Origin: an uncultured Pseudomonadota bacterium
GTDB lineage: Bacteria; Pseudomonadota; Alphaproteobacteria; CACZRW01
DNA: 38,144 nt
Direction of reading: 5' to 3'
Assembly (NCBI GenBank): GCA_902783675.1
Contig: CACZRW010000002.1
Coordinates: 1 to 38,144 of the forward strand
A program made the translations under genes and the position numbers. Position 1 is the stretch's first letter; each line of letters starts with the position of its first letter. The notes below the pieces were generated by a model, which was given only the letters and a program-made list of their open reading frames with translations, was not told where the DNA came from and did not search any database. Positions 1 to 36,557 of this stretch are shown piece after piece.

Positions 1-32
1 ATTACGGCTATCGCCGTGGTTGCTACGCAACC

Positions 33-252
33 GGATTCCCAGCCTTCGGCTGAGAATGACGGGAAAAAGAAAGCTGAGAATAACGGGGAAATAATTAGAA
101 ATGAATAATTAGGAATTAGGAATGATTGCGTTTTTGCTTCCCGCAAAAACAACTTTTATCTTTTCATTCCTCATTTCTCATTCCTCATTCCTCATTTCTC
201 ATTCCTCATTTCTCATTCCTCATTTCTCATTCCTCATTTCTCATTCCTCATT
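33..252. repeat. Palindromic heptad-array intergenic element, copy 1
   Basis: Left flank is GGATTCCC..GAATGACGGG (33-63). Five in-phase heptads AATAATT/AGAAATG/AATAATT/AGGAATT/AGGAATG lie at 90-124. The conserved core ATTGCGTTTTTGCTTCCCGCAAAAACAAC has an 8-bp stem GTTTTTGC (130-137) / GCAAAAAC (143-150) and loop TTCCC. It is followed by 12.5 tandem complementary heptads CATTCCT/CATTTCT at 165-252. The same architecture recurs at 8769-8921 and 26966-27088. Confidence 0.9.
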
Positions 253-262
253 AAACTCACCC

Positions 263-994
263 TCACCCTGTAATCCCCAAACCTTTAAGCTCTTTACGAG
301 CAGATTTATAGGAAGGGTAAAGTGCTTCTACTTCTTTCCAAAACGCCGCCGAATGGTTCATTTGCGCAAAGTGGCAAATCTCATGCACAATGACATAGTC
401 GATTAACTCCCTGCGCACATAGCACAAGGAAAAGTTAAAGGACAAAGTCCCCGAAGTCGAACAACTGCCCCAACGCGAAGAATTACTGCGCACACTCACG
501 CGCCCGACTTTGCCGCCCTTTGCCGTGCTTAAAGCCAAAGGGAAGGTCTTGGCGTACTCCGCAATCCGCACTTTGATATAGGATAAAAGTTCCTTTTCCA
601 TATATTCTCTTACTCGCCGCGAGATATGCTCCGGCGCGCCCGATACATAAATGACATTACCCTCGCGCCACACGCCGCGCCTTGCTTTCGGCATGTTGAC
701 AAAGGACACTTGCTCACCGAAAAAGTTAATGGTCGCCGTTCCCAAAGCCGCTTCGGGCTTCTTTAGAAGCCGTGCGGTTTTAATGAGCCAGCCCGTGTTA
801 TCCTCTAAAAACTGTCGTGCCGTCCTTTCAAACGCATACCAAGGCATGGTTACGATAAAGCTCTGCCTGTCGCGCGCCAGCTTTATGGATATGCGTTTTG
901 CCCGTGCGCTACGCTTAAAATCAACGGGATATCCTTTGTAATTTTCGCTCATTTGCCGAAGATTTTTTCCTGTTTTTCTTTGCTCTCGGCGCAT
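263..994 (-). CDS. YgjP/DUF45-type (SprT-like, M48-related) metal-dependent hydrolase
   Basis: The protein has an HEICH (HExxH) motif followed by NHSxxFW near the C-terminus and the typical DUF45 N-terminal pattern (FKRSARAKRISIKL..). AAGGAAGG lies 7 nt upstream of the ATG at 994. An alternative ATG at 952 has a weaker SD. Confidence 0.75.
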   Translation of the reverse strand: MRREQRKTGKNLRQMSENYKGYPVDFKRSARAKRISIKLARDRQSFIVTMPWYAFERTARQFLEDNTGWLIKTARLLKKPEAALGTATINFFGEQVSFVNMPKARRGVWREGNVIYVSGAPEHISRRVREYMEKELLSYIKVRIAEYAKTFPLALSTAKGGKVGRVSVRSNSSRWGSCSTSGTLSFNFSLCYVRRELIDYVIVHEICHFAQMNHSAAFWKEVEALYPSYKSARKELKGLGITG

Positions 995-1142
995 AAGGAC
1001 GCCTTCCTTACCCGCCTTTTGAACCCTAGCAGAAATAAGTAAAAATATCTATTGCTTTTTAGGGGGAAAATGTAAAGATGAACAGGCTTGATTTTGTAGA
1101 AGATACACAAAAGACACAACAAAAGACATAAGGAGAAATTAC

Positions 1143-2153
1143 ATGGCAATCAAAGTAGCAATTAACGGTTTCGGCCGCATCGGTCGGCTTGTTCTTCGCG
1201 CTCTTTACGAGGAGAAAAGGAATGACATTGAAGTAGTGGCGATTAACGATCTTGGCTCTGCCGAGGCCAACGCCCACCTTTTGAAATACGACTCTGTCCA
1301 CGGTCGCTTTAACGAAGACATAGCGGTGGATGGCGAAGGCAACCTTGTCGTAGGCGGCAAGAAGATTAAAGTTTTTGCCGAGCGTGATCCCAAGCTTCTT
1401 CCTTGGAAAGACCTTGGCATTGACATTTGTTTCGAATGTACCGGCATTTTTACCGCCAAGGAAAAAGCGGTTGTTCATTTAGAAGCGGGCGCAAAGCGCG
1501 TGCTTGTTTCCGCTCCTTCTGCGGGCGCTGACAAGACCATTGTTTACGGCGTCAACCACAACACTTTAACGGCGAATGATTTGGTCGTATCTAATGCTTC
1601 CTGCACGACGAACTGCCTTGCTCCCGTCGCTTATGTTTTGCAAAAGGAGTTCGGCATTGTCCACGGGCTTATGACCACAATTCACTCTTACACGGGCGAC
1701 CAACGCTTGGTTGACACTTTGCACAAAGACCTGCACCGCGCGCGTGCTGCCGCTTTGTCGTCTATTCCGACATCTACGGGCGCTGCCAAGGCGGTCGGCG
1801 AAGTTCTGCCCGAGTTAAAGGGCAAGCTTGACGGCTTTGCCATCCGCGTCCCGACTCCGAATGTTTCCATTGTCGACTTAAAGGCGGTTTTGAAAAAAGA
1901 TGTAACTGCCGAGGACATTAACGCCGCCATGGAAAAGTATGCAAAAGGCGAGTTAAAGGGCATTTTGGCAGTGAACAAAGAGCCTCTTGTTTCCATCGAC
2001 TTTAACCATACTTCGGTAAGCTCGACTTTTGATCTTTCGCAAACCAAAGTCATTGACGGCAACTTCATTTCCATACTTGCCTGGTATGATAATGAATGGG
2101 GCTTCTCTTGCCGTATGGGCGACACAGCCGCCGCTATGGCCAAGTTCTTATAG
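1143..2153 (+). CDS. gap: Type I glyceraldehyde-3-phosphate dehydrogenase
   Basis: N-terminal INGFGRIGR Rossmann motif and active-site SNASCTTNCLAP. The length is 336 aa. SD AAGGAG lies upstream. Confidence 0.97.
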   Translation: MAIKVAINGFGRIGRLVLRALYEEKRNDIEVVAINDLGSAEANAHLLKYDSVHGRFNEDIAVDGEGNLVVGGKKIKVFAERDPKLLPWKDLGIDICFECTGIFTAKEKAVVHLEAGAKRVLVSAPSAGADKTIVYGVNHNTLTANDLVVSNASCTTNCLAPVAYVLQKEFGIVHGLMTTIHSYTGDQRLVDTLHKDLHRARAAALSSIPTSTGAAKAVGEVLPELKGKLDGFAIRVPTPNVSIVDLKAVLKKDVTAEDINAAMEKYAKGELKGILAVNKEPLVSIDFNHTSVSSTFDLSQTKVIDGNFISILAWYDNEWGFSCRMGDTAAAMAKFL

Positions 2154-2249
2154 GCTTAGGTGCGTGGCGGGCAGAAACTCTTGTCCGCCACAACTGTCAC
2201 CGCCGGCATGTGAAAGTATGTGAACAAAGACAAAGGAAAGGATATTAAA

Positions 2250-3437
2250 ATGGGTAACTTTAAGACGCTGAAAGACTATGATTTTAAAGGCAAGAGAGTG
2301 CTGGTTCGGGCCGACTTGAATGTCCCCGTAAAGGACGGCAAAGTAGCCGATACGACTCGTATTGACCGCTTTGCTCCCACCGCGAAAGAGATTGCCGCAA
2401 AGGGTGGCAAGGTTATTATAGTTTCTCACTTCGGCCGCCCCGAGGGGCAAAAGAATCCTGCCTTTTCGCTTAAAGTAGTTTATGACAACTTAAAAAAGGC
2501 GCTCGCTCCCGTCCCGCTTACTTTTGTTGATGATTGCATCGGGCCGAAGGTGGACGAGGCGGTGGCGAAGATGAAGGACGGCGAGGCGTTGCTTTTGGAA
2601 AATTTGCGCTTCTATCCCGAAGAGGAAAAGAACGATCCTTCCTTCGCCCTTGCGCTTACGAAGAACGCCGACATTTATGTTGATGACGCCTTCTCGACCG
2701 CCCACCGCGCGCACGCTTCCACGGACGGCGCGGCAAGACTACTGCCCAATGCGGCGGGCCACCTTATGGAAGAGGAATTAACAGCGCTGGATAAGGCGCT
2801 CGGCAATCCCGCTCGCCCCGTTGCCGCAATAGTCGGTGGCGCGAAAATATCTACCAAGTTGGACTTGCTCGGCAACCTTGTGGAAAAGGTGAATGTGCTG
2901 ATTATCGGCGGCGGTATGGCGAACACTTTCCTTTACGCCAAAGGCACCGATGTAGGCACTTCGCTTTGCGAAAAAGACATGGCGCCGAACGCCAAAGCAA
3001 TCATTGCCAAGGCCAAGGAAAAAGGTTGCGAAATCGTCCTTCCTTCGGACTTTGTCGTAGCTAAATCTTTGGAAGATGAACAGGGCGCAAAAGTGGTAAA
3101 AGTTATCCACGACGACGAAATGATTTTGGACATCGGACCGGAATCCGTTCAAGACATTATTGCCAAGCTCAAGACTTGCAAAACGCTTATTTGGAACGGA
3201 CCCGTGGGCGCATTTGAAACTCCCGCCTTCGCCAAAGGAACTTTTGCCGTTGCCAAGGCTGTCGCCGACCTTACCAAAGAAGGAAAGCTTTTGTCGGTGG
3301 CCGGCGGCGGTGATACCGTCTCCGCGCTTAAAAAGGCCGGCGTAATCGGCGACATGTCCTATGTATCCACGGCAGGCGGTGCATTTTTGGAATGGATGGA
3401 AGGAAAGACCTTGCCGGGGGTTAAGGCATTAAGCTGA
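2250..3437 (+). CDS. pgk: Phosphoglycerate kinase
   Basis: Carries RADLNVP, STAHRAH and GGGDT motifs. The track start at 2220 is a GTG. The ATG at 2250 has AGGAAAGGA upstream and gives a typical 395-aa product. Confidence 0.95.
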   Translation: MGNFKTLKDYDFKGKRVLVRADLNVPVKDGKVADTTRIDRFAPTAKEIAAKGGKVIIVSHFGRPEGQKNPAFSLKVVYDNLKKALAPVPLTFVDDCIGPKVDEAVAKMKDGEALLLENLRFYPEEEKNDPSFALALTKNADIYVDDAFSTAHRAHASTDGAARLLPNAAGHLMEEELTALDKALGNPARPVAAIVGGAKISTKLDLLGNLVEKVNVLIIGGGMANTFLYAKGTDVGTSLCEKDMAPNAKAIIAKAKEKGCEIVLPSDFVVAKSLEDEQGAKVVKVIHDDEMILDIGPESVQDIIAKLKTCKTLIWNGPVGAFETPAFAKGTFAVAKAVADLTKEGKLLSVAGGGDTVSALKKAGVIGDMSYVSTAGGAFLEWMEGKTLPGVKALS

Positions 3438-3486
3438 GCTCTGATTTTCTTCGCGAAGGAGTAAAGACGGACAAATCCTTTTCCCC

Positions 3487-4227
3487 CTAATACTCTTCGG
3501 CGAAATCGTCATCAAGGTAAGAGTGGCGCGCGGCAAGCTCATCTAACTCGCTTTGCTCGCCTTCTTCAAGCTCATCAAAAACCCCGTGCGCCTCGTCACA
3601 AAAATCTCGGTGATTTTGCGAGTTAAGCGCGGACGCGAGGTTAGCGATTTTTGTAATCATTTTATCAAATTGCACGGTCGCCTTTTTGCCTGCCTTGCAC
3701 TTAAAATAACCCATAATCAAAGTGCCGTTTTCCCCCAGCGCTTTTTGGTATTTTAAAGCAAAATTATTATAGCGGTTTTTCGCCCCTTCGCATGCCAGTG
3801 CCGCCACCATCAGCTTGCTTTGCATAGAGCGCAAGATAATAGCTTTTTTAAGCGCTTCCTTAGCGCAAGAATCATCTGCCCGCTTACCGCTTTTAGCGGC
3901 CTTTGGCGAAGTGGTAAAAGGCGCTTTTTTCGTTACGGCCGAGGGGGCGGGCTTAGGCAAAACCTCCCCTTCGGGCGAGGCAAAATCCTTCCCTTCTTTT
4001 TCATCTTTTTCCACTTCAATCACGATGGTTTCTTTGCTGACGGCGATGGTATCCGGCGCAATCACCGCACCTTTCTCTACGGTAATAATTGCAATTTCTC
4101 TAAAGGGCTCGGGCGGTGTGAAAGTAATAACAAAAAAGGCGTCCAATCCCGCCAAAAATAAAAGCGCGAACGCAAGAATTATCACCCGCGGGCTTATGGC
4201 TTTAAGCTTTTTAAGTCGTTTACGCAA
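3487..4227 (-). CDS. Hypothetical membrane-anchored protein (N-terminal basic stretch plus one TM, four Cys, acidic C-terminal tail)
   Basis: The track ORF (to 4401) overlaps the upstream HemY-like gene. A TTG at 4227 has GGAG 9 nt upstream and lies 4 nt after the HemY-like stop. It gives MRKRLKKLKAISPRVIILAFALLFLAGL.., a signal-anchor-like N-terminus. GTG at 4242 is an alternative start. I recognise no family. Confidence 0.55.
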   Translation of the reverse strand: MRKRLKKLKAISPRVIILAFALLFLAGLDAFFVITFTPPEPFREIAIITVEKGAVIAPDTIAVSKETIVIEVEKDEKEGKDFASPEGEVLPKPAPSAVTKKAPFTTSPKAAKSGKRADDSCAKEALKKAIILRSMQSKLMVAALACEGAKNRYNNFALKYQKALGENGTLIMGYFKCKAGKKATVQFDKMITKIANLASALNSQNHRDFCDEAHGVFDELEEGEQSELDELAARHSYLDDDFAEEY

Positions 4228-4231
4228 AGCC

Positions 4232-5506
4232 TTATTCTCCACCCAAAAATACCGTAATGCGCGCAAAGTTTTTACACTTATCACATACGCTGTGCCACCG
4301 GTTATAACGCGCTCCGCACGCCGAGCAGACGAAAGGTTTAAGCTCATCGATTTTCTCGCTGGCGAGCTCTTTAAAGCGCATGTCTTTGTCGGAATGAACA
4401 AGGGTATCGCCCTCGCATATTTCGCTCATAACTTTTGCGCCATACGCGGACGAAGGATAAAGCGCCAGATACTTATCCGCAAGCTCGCGCGCCGGTCCCC
4501 ACAACGCCGCTTTGGCATAGGCGTCCGCCAACACGATATTGTTAAAGGCTTTATATTTTCCGCCCGCCACCGCGCGCGTAAGCGCCTTTATTTTATCATA
4601 AGGTTTTGCGTCCGAAAGCACCTCGTTCATGGCGTCATAAACCAAAGTTGAAGCGGACTTCTTCCACAGCTTTGCAAGCACGCGCATAGCCTTTTTCCGC
4701 TGCCCTTTTTGCGCCAGAACAAGCGCGCTTTGCACTCCCGCGGCGGCGTTATCGGGGCACATTTTTGCCGCCTCTAAAATCAGCTCCGCAGAGGCGTTCT
4801 CATCGCTGCCGCTTTTTGCGAGCCCCTTTTCAAGCATCGCCGAACTCGCCATCATTAAATAGGTTTTTTTATCCACTGCGCGACGCTTAAAAGCCTCTTT
4901 TGCCACCTTTAAAATCTCGTCCCATTTTTGGAATAAGGAAAGCAAATTAAGGTAAGGGTTAACCACCCATTTTGCCTTTGGATATTCGGCGAAAACTTGT
5001 TGGTAAAGCTCTAACAAAGCCGCAGTTTTTCCACTCTTTCCCGCATCGTCGATTTGATGTTTTAGGGCCAGTAATTTTGTTCCTTTTTCCGAAGCGAGAT
5101 TTTCCAAAACTTCCGCTTTTTTAATTCCCGAAGTTATGTTTAAGAGCATCAGATTTTTAAGCTCCGGTTCATGAGAAAAAACCTTTGCCACGCGCCCCGC
5201 CAAGGCTTCGTATTTTTGGATATTTCCCTCGCCCACCGCGGTTAAATAATCAAGCATGATTTTATGCTTTTCTTTGCTTTCGCGCCTGTTCATAAATGCA
5301 CGCACCGCATCACCGAAAGAGAAGGGAAGCATTACGATTTTAATCAGGACAAAAAGCAAAATAAGCACAAGCAGGAACACCGGTAAAGAAGTGCTTATTT
5401 GATAGTCAAGAAAAGTAATTTCCACCTCGCCCGGATTGCTTGCGAACCACCCGCACAAAAGCGCTAAAACCGCAGCGACGAACACATATAAAAGCACGCG
5501 TATCAT
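4232..5506 (-). CDS. HemY-like TPR membrane protein (HemY_N-type N-terminus, two TM helices) with C-terminal CxxC..CxxC zinc-ribbon-like motif
   Basis: The N-terminus MIRVLLYVFVAAVLALL..EVEITFLDYQISTSLPVFLLVLILLFVL is typical of HemY_N proteins. The body is helical and TPR-like. The C-terminus carries CSACGARYNRWHSVCDKC. The gene sits directly downstream of the Mic60-like gene, as in alphaproteobacteria. Confidence 0.7.
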   Translation of the reverse strand: MIRVLLYVFVAAVLALLCGWFASNPGEVEITFLDYQISTSLPVFLLVLILLFVLIKIVMLPFSFGDAVRAFMNRRESKEKHKIMLDYLTAVGEGNIQKYEALAGRVAKVFSHEPELKNLMLLNITSGIKKAEVLENLASEKGTKLLALKHQIDDAGKSGKTAALLELYQQVFAEYPKAKWVVNPYLNLLSLFQKWDEILKVAKEAFKRRAVDKKTYLMMASSAMLEKGLAKSGSDENASAELILEAAKMCPDNAAAGVQSALVLAQKGQRKKAMRVLAKLWKKSASTLVYDAMNEVLSDAKPYDKIKALTRAVAGGKYKAFNNIVLADAYAKAALWGPARELADKYLALYPSSAYGAKVMSEICEGDTLVHSDKDMRFKELASEKIDELKPFVCSACGARYNRWHSVCDKCKNFARITVFLGGE

Positions 5507-5529
5507 GGTCTGTTTTCTCCCCTTTTTTT

Positions 5530-6555
5530 CTACTTGTTTTTACTTTCGTTTTCGCCGGCGATTTTTGTAATCGCAAGTTTTGTAAGCTCGTCGCAAAGTG
5601 CCTCAACCTGCAAAAGATTTTGCGCATTTTCGCACCACTTTTTGAACACTTCCTGCTTTGCCGAAGAAAGCTTTTTAAGCGCCGACTCGGCCGCATTTAA
5701 ATCACCCGCAGAGCTTGCTTTTTCCGCCTGCACCAAAAGGGCGCTTTCGCCTTCACCCTCGCCATTTTCACCCACCTTGCGAACAACGACGAGCGTCTTT
5801 ATTTTCGCCATGACGCCGTCCCAAAAATCACCCTTGTTTTCGCCTTCGGTTTTAAGCGCGGTTTTCACCAAAACAGGCAGTTCATTTTTAAGCTCGTTTT
5901 GGGTTTTTATCCCGTTTGCAAAAGGACGAATGGCCGCGATTTTGGAAAGCATTTCTTTGTCCCCTTCGCAAAGCCGCGAAAGCACATCAAGCTCAGCGGT
6001 AAAATCCTGCCCCGAAACGGCCGCATCTTTAAGCCGCATCGCCGCCACGACCAACGCCGCACCGAGTTGCCTTTCCTTAGCCGCCTCGGTTAGTTTTTCT
6101 TCCAAAACATCAACCCGTTTTTTAAGCTCTGTCAGCTCATTTTTGCTGTCGGGTTTAGAGGAAGAAATAGCAGCAGATTTAGCTTTGGGTTTATCCTCGG
6201 GTAAGGGGACGATTATTTCCTCTTCCTCTGTCACCTCTTCAACCTCTGCCGCATCATCGTTAGCCACCCTATCTTCGCTTGCCTTTGCAAACAGAATTGA
6301 TTGCGGACGGGGAGAGGTCGCTACGGACTCGGGCTTAGAGGCGGGAGCAACTTTCGGCAAAGGCAAAGTCTTATCCTCGCCCTTAATTTTAGCTATAATT
6401 TCCCCGATATATTCGTCCGCGCTTTTATAAAAAGAGGGGTAATAAAATCCCACCGCAATTCCGAGAAGGATAACGGCAATCACCGTCCACCGCCACCACC
6501 CGAAGCCTTTTTTCTTGGGCTTTTCGGGCTTGTCTTCTTCAACTTTATTTTTCAT
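5530..6555 (-). CDS. Alphaproteobacterial Mic60 (mitofilin)-like protein, COG4223-type
   Basis: Lys-rich N-terminus, one TM helix (WRWTVIAVILLGIAVGFYY), an acidic coiled-coil middle, and a C-terminal block (..LVVVRKVG..ALLVQAEKASSAGDLNAAESALKKLS..WCENAQNLLQVEAL..) that fits the mitofilin-domain pattern. The ATG at 6555 has GGAGGAG upstream. The track start at 6627 is probably over-extended. Confidence 0.65.
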   Translation of the reverse strand: MKNKVEEDKPEKPKKKGFGWWRWTVIAVILLGIAVGFYYPSFYKSADEYIGEIIAKIKGEDKTLPLPKVAPASKPESVATSPRPQSILFAKASEDRVANDDAAEVEEVTEEEEIIVPLPEDKPKAKSAAISSSKPDSKNELTELKKRVDVLEEKLTEAAKERQLGAALVVAAMRLKDAAVSGQDFTAELDVLSRLCEGDKEMLSKIAAIRPFANGIKTQNELKNELPVLVKTALKTEGENKGDFWDGVMAKIKTLVVVRKVGENGEGEGESALLVQAEKASSAGDLNAAESALKKLSSAKQEVFKKWCENAQNLLQVEALCDELTKLAITKIAGENESKNK

Positions 6556-6644
6556 TTTCTCCTCCGTTTGCAAGGCTGTTTTCTTTACATTTCTTCGCCG
6601 CAAGAGTATATACGCTATCAAACACAAAAGGAAGTATTTAAAAA

Positions 6645-7676
6645 ATGCGCATTTTGGGAATTGAAAGCAGTTGCGATGAGACCGCCGCCGCCGTGCTGGA
6701 CAGCGAAAAAGGCCTGCTGTCGTCGGTGGTGTGGACGCAAGCCGCCGAGCATAGACCCTTTGGCGGCGTCGTGCCGGAAATTGCCGCGCGCGCTCACTTG
6801 GAAAAAATAGATATTATCATCAAGGACGCTTTAGCAAAGGCGGACACGAAGTTTAGCGACCTTTCCGCCGTGGCAGCCGCCTGCGGCCCCGGTCTTATCG
6901 GCGGCGTGATTATCGGCGCGATGACGGGCAAAGCAATCGCAAGCGTTCTGGACATTCCTTTTATTGCCGTCAATCATTTGGAAGGCCACGCGCTTGCCGC
7001 TAAATTGGAAACGAGCGTGCCTTTCCCCTACCTGCTTTTGCTTACTTCGGGCGGACATTGCCAGCTTTTGGAAGTCCTTGGCATCGGCAGGTATAAGCTC
7101 CTTGGCAAGACCATAGACGACGCCGCTGGCGAAGCCTTTGACAAAGTGGCAAAGATGCTGGATCTAGGCTATCCCGGCGGTGGTGCTTTAGTGGAGAAAG
7201 CCGCACTTTCCGGCGATTCGCGCCACTTTAACTTTCCCCGCCCGCTTGCCAAAGAAAAGAACATGGACTTTTCGTTTTCGGGATTAAAGACGGCCGTTTT
7301 ACACGCTATAAAAAGCCTGCCCGCGCCCTTAACCGCACAGGATAAAAGCGACATTTGCGCGTCTTTCCAAGCGGCGGTAATCGATGTCATGAGCATAAAA
7401 GTAGCGCGAGCGATAGACCGCTTTTCCGCCGACTTTAGCGACTCCGATAAAAGTAAAACGCTGGTCGTTGCGGGCGGCGTCGCCGCCAATAAGTCCCTTC
7501 GCCAAGCTCTGCAGGAGTTAGCCGAGCAAAGGGGCTTTTCCTTTGTCGCGCCTTCGCTCAAACTCTGCACGGATAACGGCGCTATGATAGCTTTGGCGGG
7601 GCTGGAAAGGCTAAAGTTAGGCCTTACGGATAGCCTTGCTTTCCGCCCTCGTCCCCGCTGGCCTCTTTACGAATAA
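6645..7676 (+). CDS. tsaD: tRNA N6-adenosine threonylcarbamoyltransferase
   Basis: The protein begins MRILGIESSCDETAAAV, contains the HLEGH motif, and is 343 aa long. Confidence 0.96.
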   Translation: MRILGIESSCDETAAAVLDSEKGLLSSVVWTQAAEHRPFGGVVPEIAARAHLEKIDIIIKDALAKADTKFSDLSAVAAACGPGLIGGVIIGAMTGKAIASVLDIPFIAVNHLEGHALAAKLETSVPFPYLLLLTSGGHCQLLEVLGIGRYKLLGKTIDDAAGEAFDKVAKMLDLGYPGGGALVEKAALSGDSRHFNFPRPLAKEKNMDFSFSGLKTAVLHAIKSLPAPLTAQDKSDICASFQAAVIDVMSIKVARAIDRFSADFSDSDKSKTLVVAGGVAANKSLRQALQELAEQRGFSFVAPSLKLCTDNGAMIALAGLERLKLGLTDSLAFRPRPRWPLYE

Positions 7677-7724
7677 TCAAAAGCAAGTTATAAATACCCC
7701 CTAGCAAAAAAAGGAGAAAATACT

Positions 7725-8714
7725 ATGCATAAGTTCGCAGTAATCGGTTCAGGCGCTTGGGGCACCGCCCTTGCAGTCATTCTTTCCGCCGGCGGCAACG
7801 AAGTCACCGTTTGGTCGCGCGAAAAGGAAGTTATGGAAGACATTTTGCACAACCACGAGAACTCGGTTTTCCTGCCGGGCATTAAGTTTACCCAGCATAT
7901 CAACGCCACTTTAAGTCTTGAAGAAGCGGTAAAGGACGCCGAGGTTGTCGTCATGGTCGTTCCCGCGCAATTCATGCGCAGCATGTGCAAGCAACTTGCG
8001 CCGTATTTAAAGCCGTCTATTCCCGTCCTTATCTGCTCCAAAGGCATTGAACAGGATACCGGCGCGCTTATGAGCGAAGTGGTCGCAACCGAATTACCTT
8101 CAAATGAAATAGCGGTTTTGTCGGGTCCGACTTTTGCGGGCGAAACGGCGGCAGGAACTCCGACTTCGGTCACCATTGCCTGCAAGGATAGGGCGCTTGG
8201 CGAGGCGTTGGTTAATGCTTTCGGCACAAAGACCTTCCGCCCTTATTACTCCGATGATGTCATCGGCGCGCAAGTAGGCGGTGCGGTAAAGAATGTGCTG
8301 GCAATTGCCGCCGGCATAGTTGAAGGGAAGGCTTTAGGCGACAACACGCGTGCTGCACTAATCACCCGCGGACTTGCCGAGATTGTCCGCCTTGCCAAAG
8401 CCAAAGGCGCCACACCGTCCACGCTTATGGGAATGAGCGGCATCGGCGATTTACTTCTTACCGCGAACTCGCACCAATCGCGTAACTATACCGTAGGGGT
8501 AGAGCTCGGTAAGGGCAGGACTCTGCACGAGATTATGGAAGGCAAGCGCTCGGTTGCCGAGGGTGTTTTCACCGCTCGCGCCGTCACCAAGCTGGCGCAT
8601 AACATCGGTGTTGAAATGCCCATTTGCGAAGCTGTGGATAAAGTTTTGAACGAGGGCGCGAATGTGGACGAGATGATATTATCCCTTCTTTCCCGCCCCT
8701 TCAAAGCCGAGTAG
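7725..8714 (+). CDS. gpsA: NAD(P)H-dependent glycerol-3-phosphate dehydrogenase
   Basis: N-terminal IGSGAWGTALA dinucleotide fold plus GAVKNV and GLAE blocks. SD AAGGAG lies upstream. Confidence 0.95.
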   Translation: MHKFAVIGSGAWGTALAVILSAGGNEVTVWSREKEVMEDILHNHENSVFLPGIKFTQHINATLSLEEAVKDAEVVVMVVPAQFMRSMCKQLAPYLKPSIPVLICSKGIEQDTGALMSEVVATELPSNEIAVLSGPTFAGETAAGTPTSVTIACKDRALGEALVNAFGTKTFRPYYSDDVIGAQVGGAVKNVLAIAAGIVEGKALGDNTRAALITRGLAEIVRLAKAKGATPSTLMGMSGIGDLLLTANSHQSRNYTVGVELGKGRTLHEIMEGKRSVAEGVFTARAVTKLAHNIGVEMPICEAVDKVLNEGANVDEMILSLLSRPFKAE

Positions 8715-8749
8715 CTTTAAGTTTATCAACCAACCTTAACCCCTTAAAC

Positions 8750-8766
8750 GGGGCAACGCCCCCTTT
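8750..8766 (+). terminator. Possible short intrinsic terminator after gpsA
   Basis: GGGGC-aac-GCCCC stem-loop (8750-8762) is followed by CTTTAT. The stem is only 5 bp. Confidence 0.35.
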
Positions 8767-8768
8767 AT

Positions 8769-8921
8769 GGATCCCCGAGCTGAGCCCTGCGGGCTCCCTC
8801 GAGGATGACGGGAAAATAATGAGGAATTAGTAATTAGGAATTAGGAATGATTGCGTTTTTGCTTCCCGCAAAAACAACTTTTATTTTTTTATTTCTCATT
8901 TCTCATTTCTCATTTCTCATT
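8769..8921. repeat. Palindromic heptad-array intergenic element, copy 2
   Basis: Left flank GGATCCCC..GAGGATGACGGG. Five in-phase heptads (AATAATG/AGGAATT/AGTAATT/AGGAATT/AGGAATG) lie at 8815-8849. The core is identical to copy 1, with stem 8855-8862 / 8868-8875. The right arm is 4.5 x (T/C)ATTTCT at 8890-8921. Confidence 0.9.
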
Positions 8922-8944
8922 GGGCGAAGCCCTAACCCTTAACC

Positions 8945-12651
<3,707 letters not shown>

Positions 12652-12676
12652 AAGTAACGGCAAGTAATCGGCTAAC

Positions 12677-13807
12677 CTACACCCTCATCGGCATAATGAC
12701 ATAGGTTACGGCATCGTCGCTCATATCGGTAACGATTACGGGAGAAGATGCGTCCAGCATGGAGAGCTTTACCTTTGCTCCCTTCGTCTGTCCCAAAATG
12801 TCCAAGAGATAGCGGAAGTTAAAACCTATCTCGATAGTCTCGCCTTCGTATTCGGCCTCAACATCGGTCTCCGCGCTGCCTTCATCTGCCGAGGACGCCG
12901 TCACGGCCACTTTATTCTTGGCGATTTTAAGCTTCACGCCTTTGGACTTTTCGCAAATCACGGCGACGCAATCAACGGCCCCCGCCAAAGCGTCCGAGTC
13001 CACCTCGGCGAACTTATCGTTACCGGTAGGAATGACCCGCTCATAGTCGGGATAAGTGCCGTCAATCAGCTTTGAAGTAAGTATCAAATCGGCAATCTCA
13101 AAGCGGATTTTGTTAGGGTTGATAGAGATTTTCACATCTTCCAACAGCTCGGCAACCAGCTTTTGCACCTCGCCCACGGTCTTTTTCGGAACGATGATGC
13201 CGGCCATGCCTTTAGCTCCTTCAGGCAGAGACACTTCTGCGGTGGCAAGACGATGTCCGTCCGTTGCGGCGGCTTTTAAAACCGCATCCTTGCCTTCGCC
13301 TTTCTCGTGCATATAAATGCCGTTAAGGTAATAGCGTGTTTCCTCTTGGCTTACGGCAAACAGCGTGCGGTCAAACAAGCTGGAAAGCTCGGCCGCCGTA
13401 AGCGTAAAGTTAATAGGCATACTGCCTTCGGAGATAGAGGGGAACTCGTCGCCGGGTAAAGTAGCAAGTTGGAACTTTGTCCGCCCCGAAGATATTTTAA
13501 GCTGCGAAGTTTTCGCATCCAAAGCTATTTCCACTTCGGCCCCTTCGGGCAGTTTGCGAGCAATTTCCAAAAGTTTATGCGCCGAGGCGGTAACCGATCC
13601 GCCGTCTTCCACCTTGGCGGCGGCGGACTCGATAACCTCTAAATCCATATCCGTTGCTTTAATGGTTACGCGCTCGCCTTCCAAGTCCTTCACCACATCG
13701 ATTTTTATATTGGAAAGGATAGGAATCGTTTGCCGTTTTTCCACAACATTTTGCACATGGGTAAGTAGCTTTAAAAGGGTGCTTCTTTCTATCGTAAACT
13801 TCATCAT
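12677..13807 (-). CDS. dnaN: DNA polymerase III beta sliding clamp
   Basis: The protein begins MKFTIERSTLLKLLTHVQNVVEKRQTIPILSNIKI and ends ..YVIMPMRV. The length is 376 aa and the dnaN-recF-gyrB order is conserved. Confidence 0.96.
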   Translation of the reverse strand: MMKFTIERSTLLKLLTHVQNVVEKRQTIPILSNIKIDVVKDLEGERVTIKATDMDLEVIESAAAKVEDGGSVTASAHKLLEIARKLPEGAEVEIALDAKTSQLKISSGRTKFQLATLPGDEFPSISEGSMPINFTLTAAELSSLFDRTLFAVSQEETRYYLNGIYMHEKGEGKDAVLKAAATDGHRLATAEVSLPEGAKGMAGIIVPKKTVGEVQKLVAELLEDVKISINPNKIRFEIADLILTSKLIDGTYPDYERVIPTGNDKFAEVDSDALAGAVDCVAVICEKSKGVKLKIAKNKVAVTASSADEGSAETDVEAEYEGETIEIGFNFRYLLDILGQTKGAKVKLSMLDASSPVIVTDMSDDAVTYVIMPMRV

Positions 13808-13949
13808 TTTTCTCTTTTCTAAATCTAGTAAAAACCGCAGAAAACCAAGGGCTTCCCGAAACTCTGCTCAGTATAGCAAAGCGAACCCAAAAAACAAGGT
13901 ATTTTTTATGGGGAAAAGGGCTTTTAAAAGGCACGAAAAAAGTGTTTTT

Positions 13950-14567
13950 CTACTTCTCTTTTTTCTTAAACTCAAAAAGCGAATCATCGACCGCGACATT
14001 ATACTTCGGCTCGACCAACATGATGCGCGTGCGGTTGTTTTTTGCGTCCTTTAGCGTCCAGCCTTTAAGCTCGCCGCTTTTCTTATCAAACACCAACGAA
14101 ATGCGCCCCGCCAAAGGGTCTTTTTTCATTGCCAAAGTGATATAGACCTCGCTTCCTTCGTCCCAGTAATCAAGCATATCCAAACGCTCGTCGGCAAAGG
14201 AGAAGTCCTGCGATAAAACCAAAAAGGCGGGAGAGTCTTCAAGCCCTATATAAGACACTTGGTCAAGGCTCGGTTCATAAAAAATAATGTTATAGCCGTC
14301 CGCCATTAAAACCGTATCGGAGTTTTCATAATTAAGCAGCATTTTATTAGGCTTCGAGACCAGCAAAGACCCGAAAACATCATCACCGCGATTAGTTGTT
14401 TGCACGATTTTCGCCTGCATGGTTTTGACGGAATTGATGCTTTTTTCCAGCTTGGCAAGCGTGCGCTCTTTTTTGGTAAGAGGCACTGCTTCCGCGTCGG
14501 CGTTTGTCGGTAAACTCACCGCCACACCCAGTCCTAAAATCACCATTGCCGCCAGTATTTTTCTCAA
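13950..14567 (-). CDS. lolA: Outer-membrane lipoprotein carrier protein LolA
   Basis: Signal peptide (..SLPTNADA) and LolA-like body. The gene sits directly downstream of ftsK, as in many proteobacteria. The track start is TTG; ATG at 14546 is an alternative. Confidence 0.8.
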   Translation of the reverse strand: MRKILAAMVILGLGVAVSLPTNADAEAVPLTKKERTLAKLEKSINSVKTMQAKIVQTTNRGDDVFGSLLVSKPNKMLLNYENSDTVLMADGYNIIFYEPSLDQVSYIGLEDSPAFLVLSQDFSFADERLDMLDYWDEGSEVYITLAMKKDPLAGRISLVFDKKSGELKGWTLKDAKNNRTRIMLVEPKYNVAVDDSLFEFKKKEK

Positions 14568-14590
14568 AACTCAACCGCCTTTTTACTTGC

Positions 14591-16879
14591 TTAACTTATC
14601 AAGACTTCGCGCTTACCGGAAGAACTGGCGGTAGATACGATTCCTTCGCGCTCCATGCGCTCGACAATATCCGCCGCACGGTTGTAACCGATACCGAGCC
14701 GCCTTTGCAAATAGCTGATAGAGACTTTTTGCTCCGAGCGAACAATCTCAACCGCCTCGGCGTAAATATCGCCTTTTGCTCCGTCCTCGCCGCCACCCGC
14801 AAGCCCCATATCCATGCCGTCGTCATCGTCCTCAATAACGGCGTCCAGATACTCGGGCTCGCCTTGAGTTTTAAGGAACTTTACGACATCTTCCACTTCG
14901 GCATCGGACACGAAAGGACCATGCACACGCACGGGCTTCTGTCCCGCTTCCATGTAAAGCATATCACCGCGCCCCAGAAGCGTCTCGGCTCCCTGTTCAT
15001 TAAGGATGGTACGCGAATCAATCTTGGAAGTAACCTGAAAACTGATACGCGTGGGAAAGTTCGCCTTGATAGTGCCGGTAATCACATCGACCGAGGGTCG
15101 CTGCGTCGCCATAATCAAATGGATACCGGCGGCACGCGCCATTTGCGCCAAGCGCTGGATAGCAGCTTCAACCTCTTTACCCGCAACCAGCATTAAATCC
15201 GCCATTTCATCAACTATCACCACGATATGCGAAAAAGGCTTTAAATCCAGCGGCTGCTCTTGCATTAAAGGCTGCCCGTTTTCATCAAACCCGACCTGCA
15301 CCGTGCGACTTGGCGTTTTGCCCGACGCGGCAATCTCTGCCAGCTTTTCATTGTATTTAGCGATGTTGCGGACGGCGACCAAACTCATTGCGCGATACCT
15401 GTCTTCCATTTCCTTAACCGCCCATTTAAGCGCGACCACCGCTTTTTTCGGCTCGGTCACGACGGGCGTGAGCAGGTGCGGGATGTCGTTATAGACCGAC
15501 AATTCCAGCATCTTGGGATCGACCATAATCATGCGGCATTCGGCGGGCGTAAAGCGGTAAAGCAGCGACAGTATCATAGTGTTAACCGCCACCGACTTAC
15601 CCGAGCCGGTAGTCCCCGCGACCAGCAAGTGCGGCATCTTCACCAAGTCGGCAAACACGGCCTTCCCGCCGATATTCTTCCCGAGCGCCAAGGGCAAAGT
15701 AAGCTCGCTGTTTTGGAACTTGTCATCTTCCAAAAGCTCGCGCAAAAAGACCGTTTCGCGCTTTTCATTAGGCAGCTCAATCCCCAGCACCGACCGCCCC
15801 GGCACCACGGCAATCCTGACCGACTTCGCACACATGGACCGCGCAATCTCGTCGGCAAGGCTGATAACGCGCGTGCTTCTGACGCCGAAAGCGGGATTAA
15901 ATTCGTATAGAGTAACCACGGGACCGGGCAGGATATTAACCACTTCGCCCTCGACTCCGTATTCACGAAAAGCCTCTTCCAGCCGATGCGCGCTTTGCGC
16001 CAGAGCTTCTTTAGAGAACTTTTGCCCGCCGGCGGGAACGGGTGCCAAGAAGTCCAAACGCGGCAACTTAAACCCTTTGTCATTCTTGCGTAAAGGCTTT
16101 GCGGCGGAAGTTTTAAGCGTAGTCGCCGTAGCTGCTTTCGGCTCGGCAGGAGCTTTTGCCTGCGGCAACTTTATCTTGATTTTAGGCGCGGCCACCGGCG
16201 GCTCGTTTCCTTTGGCTCTGAAGTGATTGCGCACCGCATACCACAGGTTAATTCCTGCCTGCACTCCGCGCAGGATAATTCCGAACACTTCGCGCAGGAT
16301 AGCCGTCCAGCGTATGGCAAACGCAAAGGCCATTAACCACAGCGACACCAGCACCATAAAGAACGAAAGTGCCATGCGCAGAAGATTCGCACTCATTCCG
16401 AAGTCCAGCGCGTCTAAAAATCTGAACACCACGCCGAACAGCACAAAGCCGAGCACTCCGCCCCAACCGGCGATTACCGGCCACGACGGCGCAATCTCAA
16501 ATCCAGCAAATCCCGCAGCAAAGAACAGAACCGCAAAAATCGCCGTTAATATCCGCGCCACGACGAAACGAGGATGTATCCGCAGCGTGAGCCACGAGCC
16601 CCACAAAACCATGGCTATGGGGATAAGTATGGCGGCCAGTCCCAAGCCTTGCCACAACGCATCGGCAATACTTGCGCCGACAAGCCCCAAAGCATTGGAA
16701 AACACGCCGCCGCCCGCGGTATTTAGCGAAGTGTCCAAGGGATAATAGGAAAAAAGCGCCGTTATGCCCAAAAGCCCCAGCAAAGTCAAAACAAAGCCGA
16801 AAGCCACCGCGCACACCGCTTTTAACGCGCCCGAAATATCGGCGGAAAGCAACGAAGCTTTTTTCTTTTTGCGTGCCAT
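14591..16879 (-). CDS. ftsK: DNA translocase FtsK
   Basis: Multi-TM N-terminus, Pro/Ala linker, motor domain with Walker A (GTTGSGKS) and VVIVDEMADLM, and a C-terminal winged-helix gamma domain (ISYLQRRLGIGYNRAA). Confidence 0.97.
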   Translation of the reverse strand: MARKKKKASLLSADISGALKAVCAVAFGFVLTLLGLLGITALFSYYPLDTSLNTAGGGVFSNALGLVGASIADALWQGLGLAAILIPIAMVLWGSWLTLRIHPRFVVARILTAIFAVLFFAAGFAGFEIAPSWPVIAGWGGVLGFVLFGVVFRFLDALDFGMSANLLRMALSFFMVLVSLWLMAFAFAIRWTAILREVFGIILRGVQAGINLWYAVRNHFRAKGNEPPVAAPKIKIKLPQAKAPAEPKAATATTLKTSAAKPLRKNDKGFKLPRLDFLAPVPAGGQKFSKEALAQSAHRLEEAFREYGVEGEVVNILPGPVVTLYEFNPAFGVRSTRVISLADEIARSMCAKSVRIAVVPGRSVLGIELPNEKRETVFLRELLEDDKFQNSELTLPLALGKNIGGKAVFADLVKMPHLLVAGTTGSGKSVAVNTMILSLLYRFTPAECRMIMVDPKMLELSVYNDIPHLLTPVVTEPKKAVVALKWAVKEMEDRYRAMSLVAVRNIAKYNEKLAEIAASGKTPSRTVQVGFDENGQPLMQEQPLDLKPFSHIVVIVDEMADLMLVAGKEVEAAIQRLAQMARAAGIHLIMATQRPSVDVITGTIKANFPTRISFQVTSKIDSRTILNEQGAETLLGRGDMLYMEAGQKPVRVHGPFVSDAEVEDVVKFLKTQGEPEYLDAVIEDDDDGMDMGLAGGGEDGAKGDIYAEAVEIVRSEQKVSISYLQRRLGIGYNRAADIVERMEREGIVSTASSSGKREVLIS

Positions 16880-23343: not shown

Positions 23344-23385
23344 TATAAAAATCCCCCCGCCACATCGGGCAAGGGGACTTTTTGG
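23344..23385 (-). terminator. Intrinsic terminator of porin gene 1
   Basis: On the minus-strand RNA, AAAAAGUCCCC-loop-GGGGGGAUUUUU is followed by AU-rich sequence. It lies 23 nt after the stop and is paralogous to the structure at 24795-24831. Confidence 0.65.
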
Positions 23386-23407
23386 TTTTTCCTTAAACTT
23401 CCGAAAA

Positions 23408-24589
23408 TTAGAAGGTAAGGGCAAGACCGGTAACAACCGTCCAAGCGTCTTGGTCGGCGAAGCCGAAAGCTTCTTTAAGGCGGCTTTCAACATTCAAATC
23501 AATGTAACCGAATGTTGCAAAAGCGTTCACGCCGGCACCGAGCTTGTAGCTGCCGGAAACTTGGTAAATGTCAAGCTTCGGCATCTTGTAACCAAGGTTC
23601 TTACCCGCTCTGGACGCAAACCAGCTTGCGCTTACGGCATAAGGTCCGTTTTCATAACCGACACCAACATCAAAGGCCTGCGAGTCTTTCATTTCTTTTA
23701 TGCCATAATCGCGCAGTTTATAGCCTGCTCCGAAGGTAAAGCCCGAAAAGCCGACATTCAAACCTGCGGCATATTCGTTAATAGCCTTATTTCTTTCGCC
23801 GTTGGGAAGCGGACCGGTAAAAAGAGAGTTACCATAAGTAACATCGGCACCAAGGGTTACAGGGCCTACTTTGCCGTCATAAGCAGCGCTTACAGTATAA
23901 GATCTGTTAAAATTACGCTCCTGTGCAACAACTGTGCTGTTCATAGCTCCGCTGCCACCGACAAACGGTCTTGCGTAACGTGTGCCGGGAGTATAGGTAG
24001 CGCCTACTTGGAAGCCATAGAACTTCGGCGAGAAGTAAGAAATCTTTTGTGCGTTACCATCTTCATTAACGGTGGTTGAATCCAAAATATCAAAATCAGA
24101 TATGCTTACAGGACCGAAAGGTGGTACATAATGAGGAGTGTTCATATATTTGGCAAAGCCCATCCAGTTTACAAGCTTTGACTTGTCGGTGCCCCATACG
24201 CCGGAAGCGTCCATAACTTCGTGGTGCAATTTCACGGCAGCGTTGCCGGTAGCGCCGATTTCCACTTTGCCATACTTGCTTTCGCCATAGGCAAAGACCT
24301 CGCTGAGCCATCCGGTTTGCTGCAAGTTGGAAACGTTAAGCTCGGCAATCGCACCGAACTTCATGCCGTTGTCAAGCTTTGTTTCGGCCGAGAAAATTAC
24401 TTGTCCGTCCGTGCCGAGAGCAAACTTGTTTACGGGAGTTCCGATGTCCTTTTCGGAAAGGTCGGTATAGCCCATAAAAGCGTTCAAATAACCACCGACA
24501 GAGAGCTTTAACGGTGTAGCGGCCTCGGCAGCAGCGGCGAACATACCGGCAGCAAGCAAAGCCGTAGAACCATAAAGAACTTTTTTCAT
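23408..24589 (-). CDS. Outer-membrane porin (alphaproteobacterial Porin_2/Omp2-RopA-like), paralog 1
   Basis: Signal peptide MKKVLYGSTALLAAGMFAAAAEA, alternating beta-strand pattern and C-terminal ..TGLALTF. SD AAGGA lies 9 nt before the ATG at 24589; the track start at 24595 is too close to the SD. Confidence 0.85.
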   Translation of the reverse strand: MKKVLYGSTALLAAGMFAAAAEAATPLKLSVGGYLNAFMGYTDLSEKDIGTPVNKFALGTDGQVIFSAETKLDNGMKFGAIAELNVSNLQQTGWLSEVFAYGESKYGKVEIGATGNAAVKLHHEVMDASGVWGTDKSKLVNWMGFAKYMNTPHYVPPFGPVSISDFDILDSTTVNEDGNAQKISYFSPKFYGFQVGATYTPGTRYARPFVGGSGAMNSTVVAQERNFNRSYTVSAAYDGKVGPVTLGADVTYGNSLFTGPLPNGERNKAINEYAAGLNVGFSGFTFGAGYKLRDYGIKEMKDSQAFDVGVGYENGPYAVSASWFASRAGKNLGYKMPKLDIYQVSGSYKLGAGVNAFATFGYIDLNVESRLKEAFGFADQDAWTVVTGLALTF

Positions 24590-24763
24590 TATCATGAATC
24601 CTTAAAAATAATTATTAAAAACTTTCGCGCAAAACCGATGCGCGAATCCGAGCGTAAGCATAATGTTCTATCTTTAATAGTAAACACATCTTTCAAGTGG
24701 ATTTAGCATTTTTTCGCCGTACTGTGTCTTTTTTACAACAAAGTGACTTCGTCCCCAGTTTAT

Positions 24764-24795
24764 AACCTTAACCCTTAACCCTTAAACCTTAAACC
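24764..24795. repeat. CCTTAA(C/A)-type short-period repeat, 32-mer identical to 32519-32550
   Basis: AACCTTAACCCTTAACCCTTAAACCTTAAACC contains no G on the + strand. An exact second copy lies 7.7 kb away. Confidence 0.9.
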
Positions 24796-24831
24796 ACAAA
24801 AATCCCCCCGCCGCGAGGGAGAGGGGATTCT
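24795..24831 (-). terminator. Intrinsic terminator of porin gene 2
   Basis: On the minus-strand RNA, GAAUCCCC-15 nt loop-GGGGAUU is followed by UUUGUGGUUU. It lies about 27 nt after the stop. Confidence 0.65.
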
Positions 24832-24857
24832 TTGGTTTTTCCTTAAACTTCCGAAAA

Positions 24858-26045: not shown

Positions 26046-26228
26046 AATACTAAAATCCTTATATAAAAGTTGTTAATCCTTTCGCACAAAACCAAATGCG
26101 CGAACACAACAAAAGCGTAAGCCTCTGTTTTTCATAGTAAATACATCTTTCGGCTAGGTTTTGTCGCTTTTTTGCCCCAGTGTGTCTTTTTTGCCACATA
26201 AGCAGGCGGCCGTGATTTTTAAATCTTG

Positions 26229-26291
26229 CTTATAAACTTATAAGCTTATAAGCTTATCAACCAATAACCCTTAACCCTTAACCTTTAACCC
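26229..26291. repeat. Compound short-period repeat: 4 x 8-mer CTTATNNN (26229-26260) then CCCTTAA-type array (26264-26291)
   Basis: CTTATAAA CTTATAAG CTTATAAG CTTATCAA is followed by ATAACCCTTAACCCTTAACCTTTAACCC. ATAAGCTTAT is itself palindromic. The array ends 10 nt before the response-regulator ATG. Confidence 0.85.
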
Positions 26292-26973: not shown

Positions 26974-27088
26974 GGAATTAGGAATGAATAAGTAGGAATG
27001 ATTGCGTTTTTGCTTCCCGCAAAAACAAGATTTATATTTTCTCATTTCTCATTCCTCATTCCTCATTCCTCATTTCTCATTCCTCATT
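26966..27088. repeat. Palindromic heptad-array intergenic element, copy 3
   Basis: Five in-phase heptads (AACAATG/AGGAATT/AGGAATG/AATAAGT/AGGAATG) lie at 26966-27000. The core has stem 27006-27013 / 27019-27026. The right arm is 6.5 x CATTYCT at 27043-27088. The element fills the whole gap between two convergent stop codons (26971-26973 and 27092-27094). Confidence 0.9.
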
Positions 27089-32392: not shown

Positions 32393-32442
32393 AATAGTTT
32401 TATGAGCTTATAAGGTGATAAGTTTATAAGTTGAATAAGAAG

Positions 32443-32473
32443 AAGGGCGTCGTCGTTCGCACGCCCTTTTTTC
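32443..32473 (+). terminator. Intrinsic terminator after the ferredoxin gene
   Basis: Stem AGGGCGT (32444-32450) / ACGCCCT (32461-32467) has a 10-nt loop and is followed by a T-run. Confidence 0.75.
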
Positions 32474-32492
32474 TTTATCCTTTCTCCTTAAA

Positions 32493-32550
32493 CTCATCAC
32501 CTTATCACCTTATAAACTAACCTTAACCCTTAACCCTTAAACCTTAAACC
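32493..32550. repeat. Compound short-period repeat: 8-mers CTCATCAC/CTTATCAC/CTTATAAA then a 32-mer CCTTAA-type array
   Basis: It has the same two-part organisation as 26229-26291. The last 32 nt (32519-32550) are identical to 24764-24795. Confidence 0.85.
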
Positions 32551-32610
32551 TTTAATTAACCAAAACCGTCCTAGCATCACGGGTGAAAAAGCGTTTTTTT
32601 GAAAAAATAG

Positions 32611-36526: not shown

Positions 36527-36557
36527 CTAAAAAATGAAAAAAGAATTAAAAAAAAGC

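Follow-up and report, generated by a model that had tools for sequence, protein, structure and literature searches.

What is the repeat that lies in three gaps between gene ends in a 38,144-nt stretch of DNA from an uncultured alphaproteobacterium (contig CACZRW010000002.1, positions 1 to 38,144 of the forward strand; the whole stretch is called the window below), and does it do anything there for its host? Each copy places a fixed hairpin core and a T-rich tract between two inverted arms of tandem heptads, and an earlier note, made from the letters of the window alone, had proposed a dispersed family whose arm length behaves like a variable number of tandem repeats (VNTR). The family is genuine, as the three cores in the window are identical, Tandem Repeats Finder (TRF) recovers the arrays, and metagenome-derived DNA that was compared with the window (the loci numbered with an L) holds further copies. 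With a probability of roughly 0.55, the element seems to be a terminator-like 3'-end hairpin module that is spread and reshuffled by recombination and slippage, a function that we infer from its place at gene ends, from its hairpin and T-tract, and from the fact that it shares its slot with canonical terminators and with other alleles consisting of a hairpin plus a T-run.

Structure of the repeat and its place between genes

The core, GATTGCGTTTTTGCTTCCCGCAAAAACAA (29 nt, i.e. GATTGCGTTTTTGC-TTCCC-GCAAAAACAA), occurs in the window as three identical exact copies, at 124-152, 8849-8877 and 27000-27028, all on the + strand, compared to none expected in 100 shuffles. In copy 1 its 8-bp hairpin is formed by the stems at 130-137 and 143-150 around the loop TTCCC (138-142), with a folding energy of -8.5 kcal/mol as RNA. 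Upstream of each core lies a left arm of four full AATKAGR units followed by AAT, at 93-123 (AATTAGA AATGAAT AATTAGG AATTAGG AAT), 8818-8848 (AATGAGG AATTAGT AATTAGG AATTAGG AAT) and 26969-26999, and heptads of this type are found in the window solely beside the three cores. Downstream of each core follows a T-rich tract (CTTTTATCTTT at 153-163, CTTTTATTTTTTT at 8878-8890 and GATTTATATTTT at 27029-27040) and then, likewise on the + strand, the right arm, for which TRF reports 7-nt arrays at 164-252 (12.7 units of TCATTYC), 8891-8921 (4.4 units of ATTTCTC) and 27041-27088 (6.9 units). Three consecutive YCTCATT units give 18 overlapping matches in the window, every one of them within the three right arms, where none is expected.

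The anatomy of the unit becomes clearer from the 48 unique sequences available. An A-rich lead-in (frequently GAAAAT) is followed by a left arm of about 4 units (range 2-6), with T in 67% and G in 31% of cases at heptad position 4. In the core all 24 non-loop positions are invariant, while the 5-nt loop is free, with 13 variants (TTCCC, ATTCC, AAAAT, AAAAA, ATGCA and others). The T-rich tract 3' of the core spans 11-29 nt, of which the first 15 nt hold a mean of 10.4 T, and the right arm, of 0 to 12 or more units, ends in CATT, so that the ends of the unit read AATKAGG...CCTMATT. The arms had been thought of as mirror images, but AATTAGG dominates the left arm and CCTCATT/TCTCATT makes up 94% of the right arm, with a complementarity between the two of 85-87% in the window. 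Similarly, the phase locking that had been claimed for the heptads holds within each arm but is lost across the core (the offset from left to right is 2, 2 and 4 mod 7), since T-rich spacers of different length lie in between. The extent of copy 1 also had to be corrected, as positions 33-85, from which it had been taken to start, belong to a different hairpin module, which extends past the upstream edge of the window.

Folded as RNA, the whole unit forms a long imperfect hairpin on the + strand (z = -4.3 to -7.4). A scan with a terminator consensus, limited to positions 1-12000, flags 130-150 and 8855-8875, i.e. both cores inside that stretch. A relaxed search for the core (up to 5 errors, in 388 kb) returned only two extra copies with one change each, and with no other diverged cores a covariation test of the stem is impossible. 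Since each incoming heptad holds TAG or TGA and the 7-nt period shifts the frame, stop codons close all three reading frames within 25 nt upon entry from either side. In copy 3 the upstream response-regulator gene in fact terminates at the TGA of the first heptad (26971-26973). An open reading frame (ORF) at 122-406, which runs across the right arm of copy 1, was not accepted as a gene, given that the array grows and shrinks by 7 nt at a time.

All three gaps that hold the element in the window are convergent, and not two of them as had been stated, because rpmE sits just upstream of the window and makes the gap of copy 1 (rpmE to ygjP) a convergent one. Of about 5 convergent gaps in the window the element occupies 3, but it is in none of the tandem gaps (about 22) or divergent gaps (5; hypergeometric p about 0.002). 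Copy 3 takes up the entire 118 nt that separate two stop codons, its right arm ending 3 nt short of the stop codon of the converging gamma-glutamyltranspeptidase gene (27092-27094, - strand), which means that no other terminator can exist there. When all copies are taken together and orthologues are collapsed, there are 0 divergent, about 13 convergent, about 8 tandem co-oriented and 3-4 tandem anti-oriented sites, gap classes that depend at most loci on crude longest-ORF gene calls. At about 20 of 25 sites the upstream gene reads toward the 5' side of the core, mostly in convergent gaps. The element is therefore located only where at least one gene ends, preferentially between convergent genes, and the expectation that it would never be found in a divergent gap holds for the window as well as for the metagenome loci.

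Distribution and variation between strains

The metagenome scan, with a pattern of fixed stem and free loop, yielded 39 loci, bringing the total to 57 copies including those of the window and of L003-L011. These fall into 22 automatic clusters, or about 26 sites by eye, the difference arising because shared flanking modules merge some of the sites. All copies come from strains with 97.5-99.4% identity to the window in the overlap, and the GAPDH protein of the window is encoded on many metagenome contigs, from samples of the cattle rumen/gut type, that match the window at this same level. GyrB is closest to metagenome-assembled genomes of uncultured 'Alphaproteobacteria bacterium' (78-79% at best) and about 70% identical to that of Magnetospirillum; the G+C content is about 50%. 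A cyanobacterial origin (STRR/HIP1) was considered and dropped, as the HIP1 sequence GCGATCGC is absent and GyrB places the host in the Alphaproteobacteria.

Outside these strains the element was not encountered. Among 185,579 GTDB representative genomes the stem pattern gave only 2 unrelated chance matches in Oscillospiraceae, both without heptads; IMG/VR and a plasmid search gave 0 matches, and a phage search a single chance match of 67 nt. No Rfam family reaches its gathering threshold for the element, the core included, as one of the checks suggested in advance had asked, and even at E <= 10 Rfam returns solely far sub-threshold hairpins of the miRNA type and NsiR8 (19 bits, with a threshold of 61). 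In the nearest relatives available (GyrB 79% and 72%) the element is absent, and the same genes are separated by short gaps free of repeats. It follows from this absence in relatives and databases that the family does not, on present evidence, extend beyond a single species-level lineage of an uncultured rumen/gut alphaproteobacterium.

Within that lineage the element is far from static. The slippage polymorphism that had been predicted between strains is found at four sites, where the number of right-arm units ranges from 4 to 12 or more (rpmE-ygjP, the site of copy 1), 5-12 (dciA-trx), 3-4 (gpsA-gyrB) and 3-7 (site 3). Whole copies come and go as well, as L007 is without the dciA-trx and fpg copies that L003 and L006 both have. 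The empty fpg site of L007 is a plain (TTAAGGG)n array, and in the filled site 8-mer repeats, heptads and core are nested within such an array; the empty dciA-trx allele retains a small hairpin with a T-run. At site 3, the same heptad arms enclose three different centres, namely the core with the TTCCC loop, a core with the ATTCC loop and another spacer, and a core-less cassette of 8-mers, TTAARCC heptads and a GGGACGAAGTCCC hairpin. The ATTCC allele of L056 at this site has 72 nt exactly in common with a non-orthologous copy in L021. In other strains, the gpsA-gyrB gap has 8-mer arms enclosing a canonical GC-rich bidirectional terminator, and in one strain those arms are followed by the heptad element. 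Furthermore, a 115-nt unit is reversed between L033 and L046 with both flanks collinear. The right arm thus varies in length, copies exchange their centres, and units can be inverted as a whole.

Loss of the centre is seen too. At one orthologous site in two strains (L029:240 and L035:5189) the arms are intact and most of the core hairpin is deleted (GGAATGA-AAAAACGCAGTCATTCC), which looks like a derivative formed by palindrome deletion. In practical terms, assemblies of this rumen lineage from metagenomes break at the heptad arrays, which would be good VNTR markers for strain typing.

Possible function and alternative explanations

The suggestion of the earlier note that the element serves as a terminator or mRNA stabiliser fits with a hairpin that is directly followed by a U-rich tract, as in SPRITE elements and intrinsic terminators. 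Transcripts arriving from the 5' side of the core would be stopped or weakened by the core hairpin and the U-tract, while those of the converging gene would meet the imperfect hairpin of the arms (30-40 bp) followed by AUUAUUUU on the other strand, which could do likewise. Both 3' ends may in this way be shielded from exonucleases, a protective role that is also ascribed to REP/BIME and SPRITE elements. Because tandem arms can pair in any register, slippage would be tolerated and the hairpin would survive it, and the periodic mismatch (T opposite C every 7 bp) would keep the DNA palindrome imperfect and hence maintainable. As the same arrays flank many loci, they could act as portable homology, through which recombination or gene conversion would copy, replace and flip the central cassette. 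If the terminator reading is true, 3'-end signals can be modular, mobile and quickly exchanged within a species, and the present family is an unusually readable case of this, with arms around a fixed terminator-like hairpin in dozens of near-identical strains.

Several observations weigh against this reading. The core stem (GTTTTTGC/GCAAAAAC) is AT-rich, with G-C pairs at 3 of 8 positions, which makes it weak by the standards of intrinsic terminators. At tandem sites the bias in orientation (about 8 versus 3-4) falls short of significance and depends, like the other gap classes, on the crude gene calls, and the fpg copy faces the wrong way relative to its upstream gene. Heptad arrays without any core are also found. 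The stem shows no covariation among the copies, which points to a sequence-specific constraint or to recent homogenisation rather than to simple structural selection. Finally, the minimum free energies of the + and - strands, compared as a signature of the transcribed strand, are equal (48 unique copies, p = 0.91), so that there is no G-U/A-C signature of selection on a transcript, and an explanation at the level of DNA, or a purely selfish one, fits equally well.

It is possible, though not what we would expect, that the repeat is purely selfish palindromic DNA of the MITE (miniature inverted-repeat transposable element) or REPIN kind, without benefit to the host, copied by an enzyme or by recombination and surviving only at gene 3' ends because an insertion anywhere else does harm. 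Next to the lack of strand asymmetry in folding, such an origin would agree with copies that are present or absent between 98%-identical strains, with a single lineage whose relatives at 79% and 72% GyrB identity have short clean gaps, with a high copy density (about 1 per 9-13 kb, in DNA that was fetched for other reasons), with the core deletion derivatives, and with the all-frame stop codons, which make an insertion at a gene end harmless. The likeness to MITEs that had been noted is real insofar as inverted repeats surround a non-coding core (although these 'terminal inverted repeats' are tandem heptads of unequal length) and insertions are polymorphic between close relatives (L007 versus L003 and L006). 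However, there is no clear target duplication, as TA flanks both sides at rpmE-ygjP and in L013 but not at copy 2, copy 3 or dciA-trx, and the ends themselves are AT-rich. Nor did a parent element turn up: the gene calls around L003-L011, around L054-L062 and in the window contain no transposase, and the gene-called fragments, about 390 kb in total, hold no RAYT of the IS200/IS605-like Y1 type. All alternative alleles at the same sites consist of a hairpin followed by a T-run, suggesting that the position needs such a structure, and copy 3 is the sole possible terminator for two convergent genes.

Rather doubtful, in our view, is a further step beyond the terminator-like module, in which the tandem arrays, far from being inert filler, would do the actual work of a transposase-free mobility system. 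As portable homology arms that tolerate a change of register, they would let gene conversion copy, replace and flip hairpin or terminator cassettes between gene ends. The invariance of the 24 non-loop core positions, next to a free loop, would be maintained by a sequence-specific factor. If true, this array mobility would be a new route for bacterial non-coding modules to move, keeping 3'-end signals evolvable.

A protein that reads the 7-bp repeats cooperatively (nucleoid-associated, ribbon-helix-helix or partition-type), with the inverted arms positioning two filaments around the core, is unlikely to explain the arrays. It would account for the strict 7-bp periodicity, for the systematic difference between the arms, which pairing alone leaves unexplained, and for a core that is invariant without covariation, as sequence-specific recognition predicts; regulator binding has moreover been proposed for similar paired arrays in Geobacter (PMC2700814). 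On the other hand, the right-arm copy number runs from 0 to 12 or more at no apparent cost, the arrays are never in promoter gaps, at least three unrelated types of repeat unit are interchangeable in the same architecture, and no candidate gene for a binding protein is linked to the element.

The model that had been suggested for such a protein is the omega protein of pSM19035. Its operators are contiguous 7-bp units in direct and inverted orientation with the consensus WATCACW, bound by a ribbon-helix-helix protein, upstream of plasmid promoters beside the omega gene. The resemblance is confined to the contiguous 7-bp units in both orientations and fails on sequence as well as on context, as the present element lies among chromosomal housekeeping genes, at gene 3' ends only, is built of AATKAGR/YCTMATT units and has no such gene nearby.

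It is very improbable that each copy is a gene for a small non-coding RNA, which would act in trans as a long hairpin with a variable loop. Long, stable hairpins and a loop that is hypervariable (13 variants) in an otherwise fixed core would suit such an RNA, as would sub-threshold Rfam matches that are all hairpin precursors. However, no promoter is associated with the copies, several of them begin at the upstream stop codon or within it, Rfam has no family above threshold, folding has no strand preference, and a loop of 5 nt does not suffice for specific targeting. An assembly artefact from collapsed low-complexity reads, which had been named as what could undo the family altogether and which would match contigs that break or have N gaps inside the arrays (L004, L008-L010), is refuted for the existence of the element, because independent assemblies (ENA, NCBI, JGI, Logan) hold identical copies with unique flanks and reproduce copy 1 (L003, L006), copy 2 (L003, L004) and copy 3 (L055) base for base, leaving the exact unit number uncertain for the longest arrays only.

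Known repeat systems and the surrounding mosaic

Heptameric tandem repeats are over-represented in bacterial intergenic DNA. The description of the family as undescribed-looking stands for its sequence but not for its architecture, which has been published for Xanthomonas (PMC4692102) and Geobacter metallireducens (PMC2700814). The Xanthomonas GGGAATC and Nostoc GGGGAYT repeats are dispersed intergenic arrays of 2-18 heptamers of unknown function (Rehm et al. 2015, PMC4692102). In Xanthomonas, 70-75 cases per genome consist of two nearby inverted arrays that can form a stem-loop; related genomes differ in array length but agree in whether an array is single or one of an inverted pair, and divergent gaps are under-represented (PMC4692102). 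The likeness to the present element thus lies in paired inverted intergenic heptamers of a length that differs between relatives, and GGGAATC even shares GGAAT with the AGGAATK form of the heptad. However, AATKAGR never has more than GG, in contrast to the G-rich, G-quadruplex-forming repeats of Xanthomonas and Nostoc. Between the arms of the latter, no conserved hairpin core followed by a T-tract has been described, nor has cassette exchange or nesting been reported; and their hosts are gamma-proteobacteria and cyanobacteria rather than this lineage.

In G. metallireducens, paired sites of 3-5 tandem hepta- or octanucleotides have been proposed as sites for regulators of the IHF/HU type (PMC2700814). 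Here too the arrays are multicopy and intergenic, lie in pairs on opposite strands at a variable distance, come in several unit classes per genome and are species-specific (absent from G. sulfurreducens), but the unit sequences are different, and no fixed central hairpin or data on strain polymorphism have been reported. For neither Xanthomonas nor Geobacter did the report of paired inverted heptamers come with a mechanism. What is new is the combination of a sequence-invariant, loop-variable terminator-like core between asymmetric heptad arms, its nesting in other repeat palindromes, and the replacement and inversion of cassettes among strains.

In its organisation and in the function read from it, the element resembles REP/BIME, SPRITE and NIME (PMC3184786). 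REP/BIME and REPINs are short extragenic palindromes in mosaics; they favour convergent gaps and contribute to termination and to the stability of mRNA 3' ends, while REPs also serve as hot spots of recombination and are sometimes targeted by other elements or harbour them as nests (PMC3184786, PMC3116915). The present element is likewise a short imperfect extragenic palindrome (29-nt core, 8-bp stem) of high copy number that is enriched in convergent gaps. REPs, on the other hand, are G+C-rich, linked to RAYT and without tandem-heptad arms, whereas the stem found here is AT-rich, and its flanks GATTGC and ACAA contain no GTAG-type head. The statement that the element is not a classical REP/BIME was correct in this respect but too strong, as the element is a module in a mosaic of the BIME/NIME style. 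Several distinct short motifs in variable order, intergenic and variable between strains, are what characterises BIME, NIME and RIME; with its host in a different lineage, these are treated as analogues and no membership is implied.

NIME consist of RS elements between dRS3 repeats, i.e. of variable cassettes between recombination-site repeats in mosaics that vary between strains (PMC3184786). Variable cassettes between short conserved repeats that serve as recombination sites are also what likens the present family to NIME and Correia elements, but dRS3 are single 20-bp repeats and not tandem heptads, and Correia elements have TA duplications and true terminal inverted repeats. Correia elements can terminate transcription. 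A Firmicute dispersed repeat of about 100 nt, whose structure mimics an intrinsic terminator downstream of genes, is comparable to the element in these points, but is without tandem-repeat arms or VNTR behaviour and unrelated in sequence. For the cyanobacterial STRR, Elhai et al. in 2008 are said to have described tandem heptamer arrays with hairpin repeats of 21-27 nt nested inside the arrays and inside each other, reportedly present or absent between close relatives and with no obvious transposase. Phylum and sequences are different there, and the heptamers are reportedly direct on both sides (an insertion into an array), compared to inverted arms here. CRISPR, as had been said at the outset, does not apply, since the 7-mers are contiguous and without spacers; the Rfam search returned no CRISPR direct repeat either.

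The element belongs, as one of several layers, to a mosaic in which palindromes of short repeats are nested, in part around canonical terminators. The motifs, in varying order, are the H1 heptads (AATKAGR), H2 heptads (TTAAGGG), 8-mers (CTTATAAG/GTGATAAG), GGGCGAAGCCC mini hairpins, and the modules B and C. Upstream of copy 1, the neighbouring hairpin module (1-85, + strand) is the right half of a composite palindrome of about 130 nt that starts upstream of the window. It ends in GGATTCCC-AGCC-TTCG-GGCT-GAGAATGACGGG, is seen in full in L003, L004, L007 and L011, and has compensatory variants between copies in its small stem (AGCC/GGCT, GCGC/GCGC, ACGC/GCGT). Copy 2 is abutted by hairpin module B, GGATCCCCGAGCTGAGCC-CTGC-GGGCTCCCTCGAGGATGACG (8769-8812, + strand), which is a separate repeat family, and its right arm is followed by a mini hairpin GGGCGAAGCCC (8922-8932) and then by CCCTAAC-type heptads. 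In general form, the two other dispersed hairpin modules read CGTCATCCTCGAGGGAGCC-N4-GGCTCAGCTCGGGGATCC and GGATTCCC-stem-loop-stem-GAGAATGACGGG (window 1-85 and 8769-8812; L003:8800-8945).

A palindrome at 32394-32518 has 8-mer tandem arms (GCTTATAAG/GTGATAAG ... CTTATCAC/CTTATAAG) around a canonical GC-rich bidirectional terminator (GGGCGTCGTCGTTCGCACGCCC with a T-run, 32444-32475), directly after a gene for a ferredoxin-like protein of 78 aa. It is this type of element that stands in for the heptad element at the gpsA-gyrB gap in L005, L008 and L009. Arrays of TTAAGGG/CCCTTAA and variants lie at 8733-8748, 8932-8946, 24763-24795, 26259-26291 and 32518-32552, flanking other modules in direct or inverted orientation; with GGG every 7 nt, they are G-quadruplex-capable like the Xanthomonas and Nostoc repeats. 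At 26229-26291, CTTATAAG 8-mers and CCCTTAA arrays occupy the divergent gap between a porin gene and a response-regulator gene, so that these arrays, unlike the heptad-core element, are not confined to gene 3' ends. Three heptad-element copies (L034:6389, L042:9497 and L043:851) have the same multicopy sequence of about 60 nt as their right flank (AAATCCAAAGAAAGCGTCGTGCTATTAGTGATATAAGAGCGAGCAAAATCC...), at sites that are apparently different.

As for the genes around these repeats, gyrB, recF, dnaN, lolA and ftsK follow each other on the - strand at 8945-16879. In the relatives L051 and L052 dnaA precedes dnaN, whereas in the window it is lolA that lies upstream of dnaN, which means that the local order around the replication genes differs from that in relatives. 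Two paralogous porin genes (Porin_4) stand in tandem at 23348-24595 and 24798-26048, a duplication of 82-93% identity that takes in their upstream regions. A 1258-aa ORF without a Pfam domain spans 32674-36450, and from 32674 on L049 is 88-90% identical to the window, compared to 97.6% across the preceding 11 kb. Finally, a 39-nt sequence, TTGAAAAAATAGTTTTTTTTGGCAACATTTTATGCTATA, is repeated at 90% identity at 32599-32637 and 36546-36584, upstream of two ORFs on the + strand, and may be a shared promoter or regulatory site.

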